DNA of 64,000 nt from positions 1,152,001 through 1,216,000 of the forward strand of contig CBDCOH010000002.1 in assembly GCA_965219685.1 (NCBI GenBank), read 5' to 3'. Within the stretch, counting starts at the first letter, position 1. Every line of letters starts with the position of its first letter. Both the position numbers and the translations under genes were made by a program. Below, piece after piece: positions 37,680-42,802 of the stretch. Below the pieces are notes generated by a model. It was not told where the DNA came from. It was given only the letters and a program-made list of their open reading frames with translations, and ran no database searches. The stretch comes from Candidatus Spongiisociaceae bacterium. GTDB lineage: Bacteria; Actinomycetota; Acidimicrobiia; Spongiisociales; Spongiisociaceae.

Positions 37680-38102
37680 TCAGCCGGTCGATGCCGACCC
37701 GTCGACATCCAGGGTAGGGGCCCAGGGAACGCGGGGAGCGTCACCCCAGAGCCGCTCGAGAGAGTAGAGATCCCGCGCCGCCGGCTGGAAGATGTGCACC
37801 GCTAGGTCGCCGTAGTCGAGTAGCACCCACTCCGCGGTGTCCATGCCCTCTAGCCGGAGAGGTGTCCGCCCGTACCGTTCGAGCTCCCCATCCACCTCCT
37901 CTGCGAGGGTCCGCACCTGCCGCTTGGAGGTGCCGGACGCGATGACGAAGGTGTCAACGATTCCGAGGAGATCACCCATGTCGAGAATCACGATGTCGCG
38001 TCCCTGCTTGCCGTCCATCGCATCCGCGGCAACCGATGCCAACTTCTCCGGATGGAGGTCGATCGTGGCTGTGTCCGCTGGTTGCCGGTCTGTGATGCTC
38101 AC
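37680..38102 (-). CDS. rsfS: Ribosome silencing factor RsfS
   Basis: DTFVIASGTSKRQV, WVLLDYGDLAVHIF, YSLERLWGD. Confidence 0.95.
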   Translation of the reverse strand: MSITDRQPADTATIDLHPEKLASVAADAMDGKQGRDIVILDMGDLLGIVDTFVIASGTSKRQVRTLAEEVDGELERYGRTPLRLEGMDTAEWVLLDYGDLAVHIFQPAARDLYSLERLWGDAPRVPWAPTLDVDGSASTG

Positions 38103-38158
38103 CCGTTCCTGGTCGACATCTGTGTGGCTGACACTTCCAGCATAGTGACGTGAGCTTC

Positions 38159-38758
38159 CTACCGGCGGTCAATCCGATTCGATGCCCTCGATGGCACGTA
38201 CAGGCGGTGGGTGACGATGTAGTTGCGCACCGGCTCCCGGACCAGGAACCGCAGGCTGTGGCCGATGGCGGCCCGTCTCCGGAGTTCGGTGCCCGAGATG
38301 GCCAGGGCCGGAACGTCCAGCCAGTGGAGCGACTCTCCCACCGCCTCCTGCACCGTAGCCCTGGCGGTTCCCGTTCGGGGAGCGACCGCGATGCGGGCCC
38401 GTTCCAGCACCTCCTCGGACCGGTGCCATGACCGGATGCGGGCCGCGGCATCCGCTCCCAGGATCAAGGTTGGTTTCACCCCCTCCAGATCCATGAGGGT
38501 GTCGATCGTGTACGAGGACCCGGGCCGCGCGATCTCACTGTTGTCAGCCTTCATATAGGGGATGTCCGAGGTAGCGGCGAGTGTCATCCCCCATCGGTGT
38601 CTCGCGGCCGTTACCGGCGTTCCCGCCTTCTGCCAGGGGATTCCGGCGGGTAGGAACCTTACGTGGTCGAGATCGAGCTGTCTGAACGCGGCTTCGGCCA
38701 CCACCATGTGGGCGACATGGGGTGGATCGAACGTTCCTCCGAGCAAGCCGACCCGCAT
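38159..38758 (-). CDS. nadD: Nicotinate-nucleotide adenylyltransferase
   Basis: GLLGGTFDPPHVAH, SYTIDTL, ILGADA, ISGTELR. Confidence 0.95.
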   Translation of the reverse strand: MRVGLLGGTFDPPHVAHMVVAEAAFRQLDLDHVRFLPAGIPWQKAGTPVTAARHRWGMTLAATSDIPYMKADNSEIARPGSSYTIDTLMDLEGVKPTLILGADAAARIRSWHRSEEVLERARIAVAPRTGTARATVQEAVGESLHWLDVPALAISGTELRRRAAIGHSLRFLVREPVRNYIVTHRLYVPSRASNRIDRR

Positions 38759-38911
38759 GCGCAGAGGCTACCGGTCGAAGCCCCGGTCCCGTTCGTGGCT
38801 GTCTTCGTCCTGCCCGGCATCGGGGTCACCGAAGTCTCCATTGCGTGGATCCAGGGAGGTGCCATCGGTGCCGGAAGACGCCCGACACCCCAGGGAGCGG
38901 GAAGACAGACC

Positions 38912-38928
38912 CCGAGAACGCGAAAAAC
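38912..38928 (+). repeat. Left part of a dispersed repeat interrupted by IS110
   Basis: CCGAGAACGCGAAAAAC is identical to the reverse complement of 56692-56708. Confidence 0.8.
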
Positions 38929-38943
38929 ACTCATACTTGTAGG

Positions 38944-39125
38944 GTCCTCCTCGGCTGGGGGCCGGGTCTGACCCACGCGAAAACTGGCGTTTGGTGCCTT
39001 TCCCACGATCTGTCGACCTGGCCCTAGCCGGGAGCCCTGAACCGGGGAGCGGGGTGACCTTATAGGAGCTTCGACTTCTCCACCTTGAGTGTTCTGTCCG
39101 CCGCTCTGCCCGGCTCAGGGGGACT
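38944..39125 (+). ncRNA. Predicted IS110 bridge RNA (target-binding and donor-binding loops)
   Basis: Stems 38959-38968/39015-39024 and 39035-39052/39101-39120 enclose segments matching the target (38975-38984, 39003-39009) and donor (39062-39072, 39086-39093) junctions; RNA ends approximate. Confidence 0.8.
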
Positions 39126-39158
39126 TGGAATTGTAGGCAGCTAGCGGGAGGTGGGCAC

Positions 39159-40394
39159 ATGGAAGAGCAAGATCGAGCCGATGGCATGGTTGTGGTCGGT
39201 GGGGTGGATACGCATCGGGATACCCATGTTGGGGCGGTGGTCGATGCCGCGGGTCGGCTGTTGGGATCGGCCCAGTTCCGGGCTGATGCCACTGGCTATG
39301 GGCAACTGGTTGCCTGGATGGAGTCGTGGGGTCGGGTCAGCCGGGTCGGGGTGGAAGGGACTGGCAGCTACGGTGCCGGCCTCGCCCGTCACCTCGGCGG
39401 GGCCGACATAGAGGTGGTGGAGGTGAACCGTCCCAACCGGCAGCTACGCCGCCGGCGGGGCAAGGACGACCACACCGACGCCGAAGCAGCAGCTCGGGCA
39501 GCTCTGAATGGTGAAGCAACCGCGGTGCCCAAGTCCGGCGACGGGCCGGTCGAGTGGATACGGATGCTGTCAGTAACCCGCCGCTCCGCCGTCAAGGCCC
39601 GCACCCAGGCCGCCAACCAACTCCATGCCTTGGTGGTTGGTGCCCCAGAGCCGATAAAGGACCAGCTAAAGGGCATGAAACTCAGAGCCCGCGTCCGGGT
39701 GTGCGCCCGGTTCCGACCCAGCGGAGAGTCCTCTGTCAGCTACGCTAAGCAGGCTCTCCGCCGCCTGGCCCGCCGCTACCAGGTCCTCGACACCGAGATC
39801 GCAGAGCTCGATGTCGAGATCCGCCGTCTCTGCGCCAAGGCCAACCCGGCCCTGTTGGCCGCCAACGGTGTCGGCCCCGACACAGCCGCCAAGCTGCTGG
39901 TCGCAGCCGGCGACAATCCCGAGCGTATGAAATCGGAACGATCCTTCGCTGCGCTGTGCGGTGTCAGCCCTGTGCAGGCGTCGTCTGGGCGAAGGGTTCG
40001 GCATCGTCTCAGCCGGGGCGGCAACCGCCAAGCAAACAGCGCCCTGTGGCGGATCGCTACCAACCGGATGCGTACCGACGCCGCCACCAAAGCCTACGCG
40101 GCACGACGCAAGGCCGAGGGGAAGAAGAGAAAGGAGATCATCCGCTGCCTCAAGCGGCACATCGCCCGAGAAACCTACCGTCTCCTCACCAACCCGCCAC
40201 CAACCCCGAACTGCGCCCGGCTACGCAGCCGACGTCAACAACGCGGAATCACCGTCACCGAGGCCGCCCGAACTCTCGGAACCTACCCCAGCCGCATCTC
40301 AGCACTCGAGCTCGGCCGAGACCACAACCACCAACTCGCTACCCGATACCAGAGGTGGCTCCGAACTCCCGAACCGGCCCCGTCCCCGACTTGA
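39159..40394 (+). CDS. IS110-family DEDD recombinase/transposase with C-terminal XRE-like HTH
   Basis: GVDTHRDTH (D), VGVEGTGSYG (E), GKDDHTDA (DD), GVGPDTAA, GVSPVQASSG (Ser), RLSRGGNRQANSALW; GGGAGG RBS. Confidence 0.95.
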   Translation: MEEQDRADGMVVVGGVDTHRDTHVGAVVDAAGRLLGSAQFRADATGYGQLVAWMESWGRVSRVGVEGTGSYGAGLARHLGGADIEVVEVNRPNRQLRRRRGKDDHTDAEAAARAALNGEATAVPKSGDGPVEWIRMLSVTRRSAVKARTQAANQLHALVVGAPEPIKDQLKGMKLRARVRVCARFRPSGESSVSYAKQALRRLARRYQVLDTEIAELDVEIRRLCAKANPALLAANGVGPDTAAKLLVAAGDNPERMKSERSFAALCGVSPVQASSGRRVRHRLSRGGNRQANSALWRIATNRMRTDAATKAYAARRKAEGKKRKEIIRCLKRHIARETYRLLTNPPPTPNCARLRSRRQQRGITVTEAARTLGTYPSRISALELGRDHNHQLATRYQRWLRTPEPAPSPT

Positions 40395-40396
40395 CA
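40391..40396 (+). promoter_or_regulatory. -35 hexamer TTGACA of the predicted circle-junction promoter (-10 CATACT at 38932-38937)
   Basis: Circle junction TTGACA AACATAGGAGCATCACT CATACT has a 17-bp spacer. Confidence 0.75.
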
Positions 40397-40410
40397 AACA
40401 TAGGAGCATC

Positions 40411-40690
40411 GTGGAGATCGGCTTCCACACAGGGCCCGCCCCCACCGCCACCTCCTCGAATCCCGGACGCGTCCTGCCGCCTCCCCCCTACGGGTCGCTC
40501 CGGGTGCATGATCCCTGCCCGGTCCGTTCGGTACCGCCTTCGGACCGTTGGTGTCTACGGCTACTTACCAGTATGCGACGGCGCTGTGACACGGGCCCAT
40601 CGAGAAGCTTGAAACCTCGGAGGGTTGCGAGCGCGGAGGGTGTGCCGTTCTCGGACGGAGATGCTGGCCGCGAGGAACTGAACACCCGCC
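40411..40690 (+). repeat. Right part of the dispersed repeat interrupted by IS110
   Basis: 40432-40455 and 40549-40576 (26/28 identical) match the reverse complements of 56646-56670 and 56533-56560. Confidence 0.8.
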
Positions 40691-40696
40691 AACCCT

Positions 40697-41215
40697 CTAA
40701 GGGTCGACCGGCACCAGGCGTAGACCCATCGACGGGCTCCGGGGCTGGCAGCCCAGGACGGTCTCCGGATCGACGTAGATCCCCCCGATTCGTACCGAGA
40801 AATGCAGATCGTCGTGGATTGGTCCCGGACTCAGGAGTCCCAGCCGGGTTCCGCGCTCAACGCGTTGGCCTCTTGTCACCGTGGGCCCGCCCAGATACGA
40901 GTAGCTCGTCACGAGCTGTCCACCGTGATCGACGCTGACCACCAGGTTGCCGGCGACCTCGCCCGCGAAGGCAACGCGGCCCCTGGCAGCCGCTCCGGCG
41001 TATCCGTCCGAGTCGCCGGAATAGTCGATCCCCCAGTGGCCCTCGTATCCGGGTCCGGGGTCGAACCGGTGGGTGGTCACGCCATCGCTGGGTGGATCGA
41101 GACCGACGCAGGATAGGTTCCCTCCTCCGGTTGTCGGCAGCGCAGCCGGGAACTGACCTACCGACATCGGTAGCGCGATGAGGATGCCCAGGATCGTCGG
41201 GCAGAGTGAAGCCAT
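40697..41215 (-). CDS. M23-family metallopeptidase
   Basis: GHWGID, VSVDHGG..TSYSYL, LHFSVR..YVDP; AAGGAG RBS. Confidence 0.85.
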   Translation of the reverse strand: MASLCPTILGILIALPMSVGQFPAALPTTGGGNLSCVGLDPPSDGVTTHRFDPGPGYEGHWGIDYSGDSDGYAGAAARGRVAFAGEVAGNLVVSVDHGGQLVTSYSYLGGPTVTRGQRVERGTRLGLLSPGPIHDDLHFSVRIGGIYVDPETVLGCQPRSPSMGLRLVPVDP

Positions 41216-41470
41216 GAAAACACTCCTTGCCTCCCGTCGCCTTGCCGAACAGAGTCAGCGCCGCCACGGCATCGCCCGATCTACCGGCGCTCGGGCCCAG
41301 CCGTCTACCCCGGAAGGTAACCCGCAGGGTCGACCTTGCCAAGGGGTCTGTGGGGACCGGTCTCACGGCGGTCGCCGCTGCTGTCGATCGCCGCATGCCT
41401 GAACCAACTCACCGCCTGAACTAACCTGGAAACCCGGGCCATTCTTTCGCGTTAGACGAGGTCGCTCAGG

Positions 41471-42802
41471 ATGCGAATCATCATCGTTGGTGCCGGTGCG
41501 ATCGGCGGTTACATCGCCGAGCGCCTGTCACTGGAAGGCCAGGACGTCGTGGTCGTCGAGATCAATCCCAAGCGCGCCGCGGAGATCCGGAACCGCCTGG
41601 ACGCCCTGGTGATAACCGGCAACGGCGCCAGCGCATCCATTCTGGCCGAAGCAGGCGCCGATGAAGCCGACCTGCTGCTGGCCGTCTCGACCAGCGACGG
41701 CGCCAACATCATCGCCTGTCACACGGCCACGAAGATGGGTGTTCCGCGCACGGTGGCACGGGTCCAGGATCCAGGGTTGAAGGACGGCTTGGAGGGCCTG
41801 GACGTTGACTTCGTGATCGATCCGGTCGAGTCGGCCGCCAGGGAGATAGCGGCTCTGGTAAGCGAGTCGGGGGTGTCCGAGTTGATCGAGTTCGGAGGAG
41901 GGAAGCTCGCCCTCGTGGGCGGTACCGCGACCGCGCTCTCCCCGCTACTCGGCATCCCCCTCAGGAGGATACGCGGCCGCTTCACCGAGTTCCGCTGGCT
42001 GGCGATCGCCGTCGTGCGCAACGGCATCACGATCGTGGCTCACGGTGACACGACGATACGCGAGGGCGACCATCTCCTGCTCATGGTGCGGAGCCACAAC
42101 GTGGAGCGGGCCAAGACCCTCATCGGGATCCGCGGTCCCAAGATACGCCGGGCACTGATCATCGGAACCACCCGGGTGGCGCGTCTGACAGCCGACCATC
42201 TCGTTGAGACCGGCCTACCGATCGTGGTCGTCGACCCTGACATGAGTCGTTGCCGCGCTGTAGCTGAGCGCCATCCGTCGGCCTTGGTGATCGCCGGTGA
42301 CCCGACCGACCCGGAGGTGTACGACGATCTGGGGATCGATCAGGGCGACGCGGTGGTGGCCCTCACCGGTATCGACTCGATCAACCTCATCGGATCGCTG
42401 GTCGCGAAGGCGCTGGGCGCCTCCACGACGATCACGCGCGTCACGCGCATGAGCTACGTGGGACTCCTGGCCGGTATAGGAGTGGACACCACGGTGTCGA
42501 CCAGGCTGGCCGCCGCTGCGCAGATCCTTCGCTTCGTCCGCCGGGGCACCGTCCACTCGGTCGCCACCTTCTCCGACACCGATGCGGAGGTGATAGAACT
42601 CGAAGTAGATCCTGCTTCGGAGGCGGTGGGACACACCCTGCTCGAACTGCCGTTGCCGTCCGGCGCGGTGATCGGGGGAATCCTGAGAGGGGACAGTTCC
42701 TTCGTCCCATCGGGTGTCACCTCCATCAGGGCCCACGATCACCTGATCATCTTCACCATCCCGACCGCGATGGCAAGAGTCGAAACCCTGTTCACTACGT
42801 GA
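41471..42802 (+). CDS. trkA: Trk system potassium uptake protein TrkA
   Basis: MRIIIVGAGAIG; two RCK_N/RCK_C pairs; adjacent to trkH. Confidence 0.93.
   Translation: MRIIIVGAGAIGGYIAERLSLEGQDVVVVEINPKRAAEIRNRLDALVITGNGASASILAEAGADEADLLLAVSTSDGANIIACHTATKMGVPRTVARVQDPGLKDGLEGLDVDFVIDPVESAAREIAALVSESGVSELIEFGGGKLALVGGTATALSPLLGIPLRRIRGRFTEFRWLAIAVVRNGITIVAHGDTTIREGDHLLLMVRSHNVERAKTLIGIRGPKIRRALIIGTTRVARLTADHLVETGLPIVVVDPDMSRCRAVAERHPSALVIAGDPTDPEVYDDLGIDQGDAVVALTGIDSINLIGSLVAKALGASTTITRVTRMSYVGLLAGIGVDTTVSTRLAAAAQILRFVRRGTVHSVATFSDTDAEVIELEVDPASEAVGHTLLELPLPSGAVIGGILRGDSSFVPSGVTSIRAHDHLIIFTIPTAMARVETLFTT

Follow-up and report, generated by a model that had tools for sequence, protein, structure and literature searches.

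An intact IS110-group element with a predicted bridge RNA and a single shared C at its exchange site in an Acidimicrobiia genome

Boundaries of the element and its recombinase

The window analyzed here is a 64,000-nucleotide stretch of the genome assembly of Candidatus Spongiisociaceae bacterium, an uncultured member of the Acidimicrobiia (GCA_965219685.1, contig CBDCOH010000002.1, positions 1,152,001 to 1,216,000, forward strand); coordinates below are those of the window. On its plus strand, positions 38929-40410 hold an intact 1482-bp insertion sequence (IS) of the IS110 family that runs from ACTCAT to GCATC, its limits being given by homology between copies and by a metagenome contig that skips it. 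The element has no terminal inverted repeats. It consists of a long left non-coding end of 230 nt (38929-39158, plus strand), predicted to encode a bridge RNA, a recombinase gene (39159-40394), and a short right end that extends 16 nt past the stop codon. We consider it very probable that this is an intact, recently inserted element of the IS110 group with a predicted bridge RNA, four guides and exchange at a single C.

The left target flank, ACGCGAAAAAC, occupies 38918-38928 of the plus strand and ends in the C (38928) that forms the one-base core common to element and target. The right target flank is GTGG (40411-40414, plus strand), which reads GTGGG in the consensus target. The right end of the element, ATAGGAGCATC (40400-40410, plus strand), is the left-donor sequence and also ends in the core C. 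The donor sequence of the window element is GGAGCATCACTCA, the consensus target is CGCGAAAACGTGGG, and the predicted circle junction is GGAGCATC joined to ACTCA. All 12 pairs of coordinates and sequences quoted in a preliminary description of this DNA are exact.

The source genome (4.42 Mb in 2 contigs) contains two further copies of the same subfamily, A, namely L002 (94% identity) and L003 (91%), together with three 70%-identical copies of a subfamily B (L007-L009) and many fragments. Similarity between the subfamily-A copies spans 38919-40414 and so takes in the conserved target bases. The exact string CGCGAAAACGTGGG occurs four further times in the genome, versus no occurrence of a reversed-pattern control, and the outer flanks of these four sites are those of L002 and L003; the four sites are unoccupied targets. 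Comparison of occupied with empty subfamily-A sites shows the gain of ACTCAT...GCATC, with one C assignable to either side. For subfamily B, at least seven empty sites have the form GAGTCTCCGG(G/A)G(A/T)AAC followed by CGGGGCGGTTCA, again with a one-base overlap.

The empty state of the window locus itself was found in a 4287-nt contig (depth 18) from sponge-metagenome run X5, which belongs to a different study from the likely source runs, X1 and X2. This contig covers 38600-38927 and 40410-40700, with one differing letter per flank, and joins 38927 directly to 40410 with one ambiguous base, skipping exactly 1482 bases. The join places the element at 38929-40410 and gives the pre-insertion site as ACGCGAAAAAC followed by GTGGAG. 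Because the insertion is missing from a population whose flanks are at least 99% identical, the window insertion is recent. The empty site was also sought in G378, a genome of the same genus, and in four genomes of the same family, where the intergenic region is too diverged for a conclusion. To the right of the element, a repeat of about 65 nt adjoins it at 40431-40497, with about eight occurrences in the genome and four in G378, and run X5 shows a length variant there that joins 40455 to 40541.

The recombinase gene (plus strand) is one long uninterrupted open reading frame (ORF) encoding 411 amino acids (aa). The protein contains a DEDD_Tnp_IS110 domain at residues 15-159 (PF01548, 4.8e-23), a Transposase_20 domain at residues 232-313 (PF02371, 1.2e-20) and a C-terminal XRE-type helix-turn-helix (HTH) at residues ~353-388, for which the HTH_3 match is weak (residues 355-387, 4.1e-5). 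It scores 198.9 bits against the NCBIfam equivalog NF033542, 'IS110 family RNA-guided transposase', whose cutoff is 140. Among solved structures it has just two relatives, ISCro4 (E 4e-11) and IS621 (E 1.4e-10), and S276 (ASS276G) aligns with the ESG-motif serine of both. The motifs VD17TH, VE66GTG and KDD104HTD107A are all present. We take D17, E66, D104 and D107 to be the DEDD tetrad, the N-terminal alignment to the solved structures being weak. The uninterrupted ORF, the NF033542 score above the cutoff and the alignment of the catalytic serine with IS621 bear out the preliminary description of an intact recombinase.

The HTH forms part of a C-terminal extension (window 40176-40391, residues ~340-411) that is absent from IS621 and ISCro4. 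The extension is common to at least 133 protein clusters, nearly all of them ~409-aa metagenomic IS110 recombinases, and some relatives of 345-366 aa lack the HTH. This domain could be a candidate for regulation of the junction promoter, or for holding or capture of DNA.

Relatives were taken from the same genome, from public genomes (23 loci) and from 401 genomes of the same class. For the public-genome loci, the closest record titles are Acidimicrobiia metagenome-assembled genomes (MAGs), several of them sponge-associated, in agreement with the actinobacterial branch assigned beforehand. A recombinase match with E <=1e-40 was found in 75 of the 401 same-class genomes, a count that takes in the unpublished genome G254, whose locus was left out of the analysis. 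An nhmmer profile of a 22-sequence alignment (A1) detected the RNA ahead of the recombinase gene at most of the new loci, and the final alignment comprises 42 left ends. At one relative, L066 of another Acidimicrobiales MAG, the right end and right target lie in tandem duplicate (positions 2727-2800, a 35-nt unit present twice).

Scaffold and guides of the predicted bridge RNA

The minimum-free-energy fold of 38929-39158 consists of two stem-loops with internal loops, both on the plus strand. The first, the target-binding hairpin (38958-39025), has a basal stem of 38958-38972 with 39012-39025, an internal loop, and an apical 3-bp stem of 38986-38988 with 38996-38998. In the second, the donor-binding hairpin (39035-39120), basal arms at 39035-39052 and 39101-39120 surround the internal loop. 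The stems 38959-38968/39015-39024 and 39035-39052/39101-39120 had been described before and are exact. Folding of the left end had been suggested there as a check; the two stem-loops were recovered at an energy no better than that of shuffled sequences (z = -0.54, 60/200 shuffles as good). Since the fold energy is ordinary, the case for an RNA rests on comparison across the family.

All 42 left ends are built on one scaffold. The target part reads GGTCTGAC, a variable guide, CTGGC, a loop, GTGCCTT, a second variable guide and GATCTGTCG; the donor part reads GTGACC, a ATAGGAGC-like guide, a loop, an xGAGTGxx-like guide and CTGTCC. In the target-hairpin stem 94.6% of cells are paired, versus 33-48% with slid partners, both sides have changed in 9/16 pairs, and the covariation score was reached by none of 500 shuffles. 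RNAalifold applied to MAFFT alignments recovered the target hairpin and failed to recover the donor hairpin because its arms are misaligned between subfamilies. The donor stem was therefore judged by a comparison of cognate and non-cognate duplexes, in which the 14-nt basal arms gave a mean of -14.9 kcal/mol for cognate versus -11.5 kcal/mol for non-cognate pairings (34 distinct arm pairs, 0/20000 permutations).

Four putative guides can be decoded from the two loops, all on the plus strand. In loop 1, the left target guide CGCGAAAAC (38976-38984) has the same sense as the top strand of the left target, and the guide stretch ACGCGAAAAC at 38975-38984 is the one set against the left flank. The right target guide CCCACGAT (39002-39009) has as its reverse complement AT (handshake), C (core) and GTGGG; CCACGAT (39003-39009) is the reverse complement of ATCGTGG (40408-40414). 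In loop 2, the left donor guide ATAGGAGCTTC (39062-39072) matches the right end ATAGGAGCATC at 10/11 positions, and the right donor guide TGAGTGTT (39086-39093) has as its reverse complement AA (handshake), C (core) and ACTCA, the left end of the element, matching the left junction AACACTCA (38926-38933) at 8/8 positions. The sequence matches of these loops to the flanks and ends had been proposed in the preliminary description and are exact as quoted there.

Covariation of guides with flanks among homologues, which that description had named as a check, was observed, and it extends to the donor guides and the element ends. Subfamilies A and B offer the comparison within one genome: their donor ends and donor guides are identical, their targets differ (CGCGAAAAC/GTGGG for A, CCGGGGAAAC/CGGGG for B), and their loop-1 guides differ to match. 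Across the alignment, right junctions were placed by the consensus right end alone, which left 32/42 usable and 22 distinct guides after identical ones were collapsed; left junctions were placed by the right donor guide alone (30/42 usable, 24 distinct guides). When right flanks were compared with right target guides in a fixed register, the cognate mean was 4.23/6 versus 1.43 for non-cognate pairs, and at least 5/6 positions matched in 12/22 cognate versus 2/462 non-cognate pairs. Comparison of the last eight left-target bases with the left guide gave a cognate mean of 6.92/8 versus 4.16, with at least 7/8 matching in 17/24 versus 11/552 pairs. The observed sum was reached by 0/100000 permutations on either side. 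A longest-common-substring test on 27 specificity groups agrees (0/20000), its background being high owing to shared guides and long search regions, so that the fixed-register test is the more trustworthy.

The donor guides behave in the same manner. For the right donor guide, the hexamer made of the core and the next five bases occurs once and without mismatch in the upstream 95 nt of 30/42 elements, versus 13/588 non-cognate trials. The left donor guide varies too (GGAG, GAAG, GGGG, GGTG, GAGAG, GGCG), and its variants follow their own right ends, with 2/20000 permutations of the 12 distinct guides reaching the observed value. In all, there are at least 22 distinct specificities in which guides and flanks have changed together on an unchanged scaffold; the effect of guide on flank agreement is large, and many separate lineages show it. 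From these sequence comparisons, the predicted loop-1 guides are complementary to, and covary with, both target flanks, and the predicted loop-2 guides do the same with both element ends.

These data bear directly on the possibility that the left end serves the transposase mRNA only as a leader or regulatory region, with the target picked by the protein, for example through the C-terminal HTH, and the flank matches incidental. The recombinase does possess an extra domain of DNA-binding type, and the unremarkable fold energy would suit such a leader. A fixed scaffold on which at least 22 guide sets change with their flanks is not what it predicts, and the RNA layout is unchanged in relatives that lack the HTH (L084, L087, L097). 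The match covers 9 + 9 bases of the flanks for L087 and 8 bases of the right junction for L097, and is poor for L084. We give this explanation almost no credence and retain a guide-bearing bridge RNA as the reading of the left end.

One-base core and predicted handshake

Left target and right end both terminate in C without exception. At position -2, T is found in the right end at 32/32 usable junctions, and 28/30 left targets do not have T there (three of these, L065, L076 and L082, are of ambiguous register). At -3 the right end and the right target guide (n=32) pair off as ATC/ATC in 28 cases, TTC/TTC in 2 and GTC/GTC in 1, with 1 mismatch. The right target guide always carries the complement of the donor xTC, with x covarying in 31/32, in line with the earlier proposal that each right guide ends in two bases that agree with the partner DNA. 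The right donor guide matches the target at -2 in 23/30 elements and the donor T in 0/30. In the window copy the two layouts are AT + C + GTGG and AA + C + ACTCA.

The empty sites of the window locus, of the sister copies and of subfamily B all show a one-base overlap and thereby define the shared core as one C, with the predicted handshake positions (-2 and -3) directly beside it. The preliminary description had also arrived at one shared base, C, and no CT core; the empty sites agree. Literature statements here and below draw on parts of six sources: PMC11208158, PMC11208160, 10.1101/2025.05.14.653916, 10.64898/2026.08.31.748434, 10.64898/2026.08.14.744561 and PMC11187229. IS621 uses 14-nt sites with a CT core at positions 8-9 of donor and target, the top strand being cut after T9, and its handshake guides pair with partner DNA positions 6-7 after exchange (PMC11208158). 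An identical CT dinucleotide core of the IS621 type is, to judge from the junctions, absent from the window element, and its putative handshake at -2/-3 lies one base nearer the cut than in IS621.

The same bridge-RNA element might nevertheless use a dinucleotide crossover (donor TC, target AC), with cuts two bases apart and the mismatch at -2 tolerated and then resolved by replication or repair. The first core base of IS621 is less conserved, and GT, AT and TT cores work (PMC11208158, PMC11208160); the recombinase domains are homologous, so active-site geometry may be kept; and the invariant GA of the right target guide sits where the core-binding bases of IS621 sit. An unbiased two-base stagger with random resolution, however, predicts the target base at -2 in about half of the right ends, and it was seen in 0/32, with T in every right end and non-T in 28/30 targets. 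The overlap is one base in all empty-site comparisons. The published IS621 core tests, in the parts of PMC11208160 covered here, changed donor and target cores together and did not make them unlike. We regard a dinucleotide crossover as unlikely.

Three explanations would suit the 0/32 count: cuts one base apart, repair with a strong bias, or transfer confined to the top strand. The top-strand outcome is what every observed product shows. On the reading suggested below, either the stagger is one base or the top strand alone is transferred, as a recent copy-out preprint has proposed for IS621 excision (10.64898/2026.08.31.748434). The design rules for IS622 require identical donor and target cores (10.1101/2025.05.14.653916). 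We tentatively suggest, with somewhat more doubt than belief, that a large, mostly metagenomic clade of ~409-aa recombinases, many with an XRE-type HTH, needs only the shared C and uses the two adjacent positions for the handshake.

For the preferred single-C exchange we propose the following course; its transcription, RNA-binding and catalytic steps, and the order in which strands are exchanged, are inferred. The element would, like IS621, excise as a circle. Joining of the right end to the left end would set TTGACA 17 nt before CATACT and start transcription of the left end, and the transcript would fold into the two internal-loop hairpins. Loop 1 would read the left target through CGCGAAAAC and the right target through CCCACGAT, and loop 2 would read the right end of the element through ATAGGAGCTTC and its left end through TGAGTGTT. 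The DEDD/Ser recombinase would then exchange strands just 3' of the one C common to donor and target. Immediately 5' of it lie AT in the donor and AA in the target, and each right guide complements the bases of the partner. Because the right guides complement partner bases, full pairing would be reached only after top-strand exchange, which is the handshake.

Circle junction, landing sites and known systems

The predicted circle-junction promoter consists of a -35 hexamer, TTGACA (40391-40396, plus strand), which overlaps the stop codon TGA at 40392-40394, and a -10-like hexamer, CATACT (38932-38937, plus strand), which follows 17 nt after TTGACA in the circle junction only. In the integrated state the -35 position is filled by ACCCCG (38909-38914), and no sigma-70-like promoter was found across 38700-40600. 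The junction pattern, defined as TTGACA with at most one mismatch followed 16-19 nt on by an xAxxxT hexamer, is present in 18/26 elements with both ends defined. A promoter predicted to be rebuilt across the circle junction matches what is known of the family, for which a junction promoter is established and the integrated state is normally without a promoter, according to the covered parts of PMC11208160.

The consensus target of subfamily A lies within the first ~20 nt of a 1.35-kb repeat with about nine genomic copies. This repeat encodes a 397-aa ISL3-family transposase (DDE_Tnp_ISL3, 1.3e-60) and is bounded by inverted repeats that contain the target; examples are L121 (G000:C2:107000-108560), L122 (G000:C2:2726350-2727900) and L119 (G000:C2:3144600-3147760). 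L002 and L003 are inserted in ISL3 inverted repeats, and the window copy is not. The terminal inverted repeats of this ISL3-family IS are the natural target of subfamily A, and the window copy occupies a near-cognate chromosomal site. Its right guide fits over GTGG, and the insertion resembles, by comparison, the relaxed 'half-match' insertions described for IS621 in the covered parts of 10.64898/2026.08.31.748434. Insertions of subfamily B likewise fall in a repeat terminus, that of a different repeat.

Two further observations concern the ISL3 repeat. The same ISL3 end, on the other strand and ~35 nt away, is the target decoded for the L059 and L060 elements of another genome, and this end, 86 nt long, is present in tandem duplicate at L119. 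Most full and fragmentary IS110 copies, solo left-end fragments and one ISL3 copy are found in an IS-dense region at G000:C2:3.02-3.13 Mb (loci L002-L006, L008, L010, L011, L013, L015-L017, L019 and L022).

The window insertion site lies between the start of a minus-strand ORF at 38159-38758 (199 aa) and the end of a minus-strand 172-aa ORF at 40697-41215. From the translations alone, we take the ORF at 38159-38758 to be nadD-like and the next one rsfS-like. The element stands ~170 nt upstream of, and divergent from, this presumed nadD-like gene and may separate the operon from its upstream sequence.

A dead relic, in which the guide and flank matches record a past insertion and the window copy is immobile, would fit the state of some of its relatives. 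Three of the six full-length genomic copies are broken, L003 by a frameshift (longest ORF 247 aa), L009 by a frameshift (236 aa) and L007 by an in-frame TGA, and full-length ORFs are found in the window copy, L002 and L008. The integrated copy is without a -35 element, and no circle-junction contig was seen. A promoterless integrated state is nonetheless normal for the family (PMC11208160, in the parts covered). In the window copy the 411-aa ORF runs without interruption and keeps every catalytic motif, guides and stems are intact, and the population in run X5 with nearly identical, unoccupied flanks makes the insertion recent. A relic is thus quite improbable.

Several observations weigh against our interpretation of the window copy as an intact, bridge-RNA-guided element with four guides. 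Beyond the ordinary fold energy, an Rfam search (evalue mode) of 38000-41500 gave only chance-level matches, none of them in the left end. Automatic junction calls failed or were doubtful for 10/42 right and 12/42 left ends, mostly those of the most distant relatives, and these were dropped. The elements are kin and not fully independent, so the permutation counts overstate significance. At 39070 the left donor guide places U or C opposite the A at right-end position -3, in the window copy and in the relatives examined; this mismatch is a conserved non-pair and not decay. The left flank of the window copy has one A more than the guide and the consensus target CGCGAAAAC, so that the left guide fits AAAAC only, or 9 bases with one bulged DNA base, and the site is off-consensus. 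Finally, no contig running from the right end back to the left end was found in runs X1, X2, X5 and X6; contigs drop rare forms, which makes this result uninformative.

Weighed as a whole, the element is assigned to the IS110 group within its family, IS110, and it probably works like IS621, to judge by its domains, ends, RNA layout, guides, handshake and junction promoter. It shares with IS621 and ISCro4 (IS622) (Durrant 2024, Hiraizumi 2024, Perry 2025) a DEDD RuvC-like domain with a Tnp domain bearing the catalytic Ser, an RNA in the long left end with the target-binding loop first and the donor-binding loop second, left guides of top-strand sense and complementary right guides whose handshake bases match the non-cognate DNA, and a promoter rebuilt across the circle junction, seen here as a sequence pattern. 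The IS621-like layout of target guides, donor guides and handshake given in the preliminary description is matched in loop order, guide senses and partner matching. It differs from IS621 and ISCro4 in its remote protein similarity (E ~1e-10), in a left target guide of ~9 nt and a right one of ~5 nt plus 3, in a 411-aa recombinase with ~70 extra residues that include the C-terminal HTH versus 326-341 aa, and in its host, an uncultured member of the Acidimicrobiia versus an enterobacterium. The core is one C versus CT in IS621, and the landing pad, an ISL3 element end, is a further departure from IS621.

Other DEDD-transposase elements provide partial parallels. ISEc21 and other IS110-type elements with a seekRNA likewise have a non-coding region upstream of the transposase gene; circles do not form without that region, and targeted insertion, which leaves no target duplication, depends on it as well (Siddiquee et al. 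2024, PMC11187229); they differ in lineage and target, and the covered parts of that paper make no mention of a one-base overlap or an HTH domain. IS1111-group elements also target the terminal inverted repeat of another mobile element, which for the window subfamily is that of an ISL3-family IS; the IS1111-group elements carry the RNA in the right end and have long subterminal repeats, whereas the window element belongs to the IS110 group. ISPpu9 and ISPpu10 of Pseudomonas putida, from the IS110 family, are similarly multicopy and aimed at a repeated genomic sequence; their targets, in the sources as covered, are repetitive extragenic palindromic (REP) elements, whereas those of the window subfamily are the ends of another IS.

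Of the IS110 elements catalogued, 85.7% already have a predicted bridge RNA (PMC11208160, in part). The kind of system is thus already known, and the single-base core and the C-terminal HTH make the window element a variant of it. The covered parts of the IS110 bridge-RNA literature describe neither a one-base core nor an HTH-fused IS110 recombinase, with the proviso that the supplementary tables of Durrant 2024 may list clade and core; 10.1101/2025.10.25.684509 contains zero occurrences of 'core', 'heteroduplex' and 'stagger'.

For its sponge-associated Acidimicrobiia host, the element shows recent mobility and one IS family landing in the ends of another, ISL3. Bridge recombinases are under development as programmable tools for DNA insertion, inversion and excision, with design rules that derive from IS621 and IS622 and call for the same dinucleotide core in donor and target. 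A natural clade with one shared base and at least 22 guide sets on one scaffold offers a test of whether the core rule reflects chemistry or the habit of a lineage, and it is also suited to testing whether both strands are really exchanged. If true, cuts one base apart or top-strand-only transfer would loosen the core constraint that limits the choice of sites for bridge editing.

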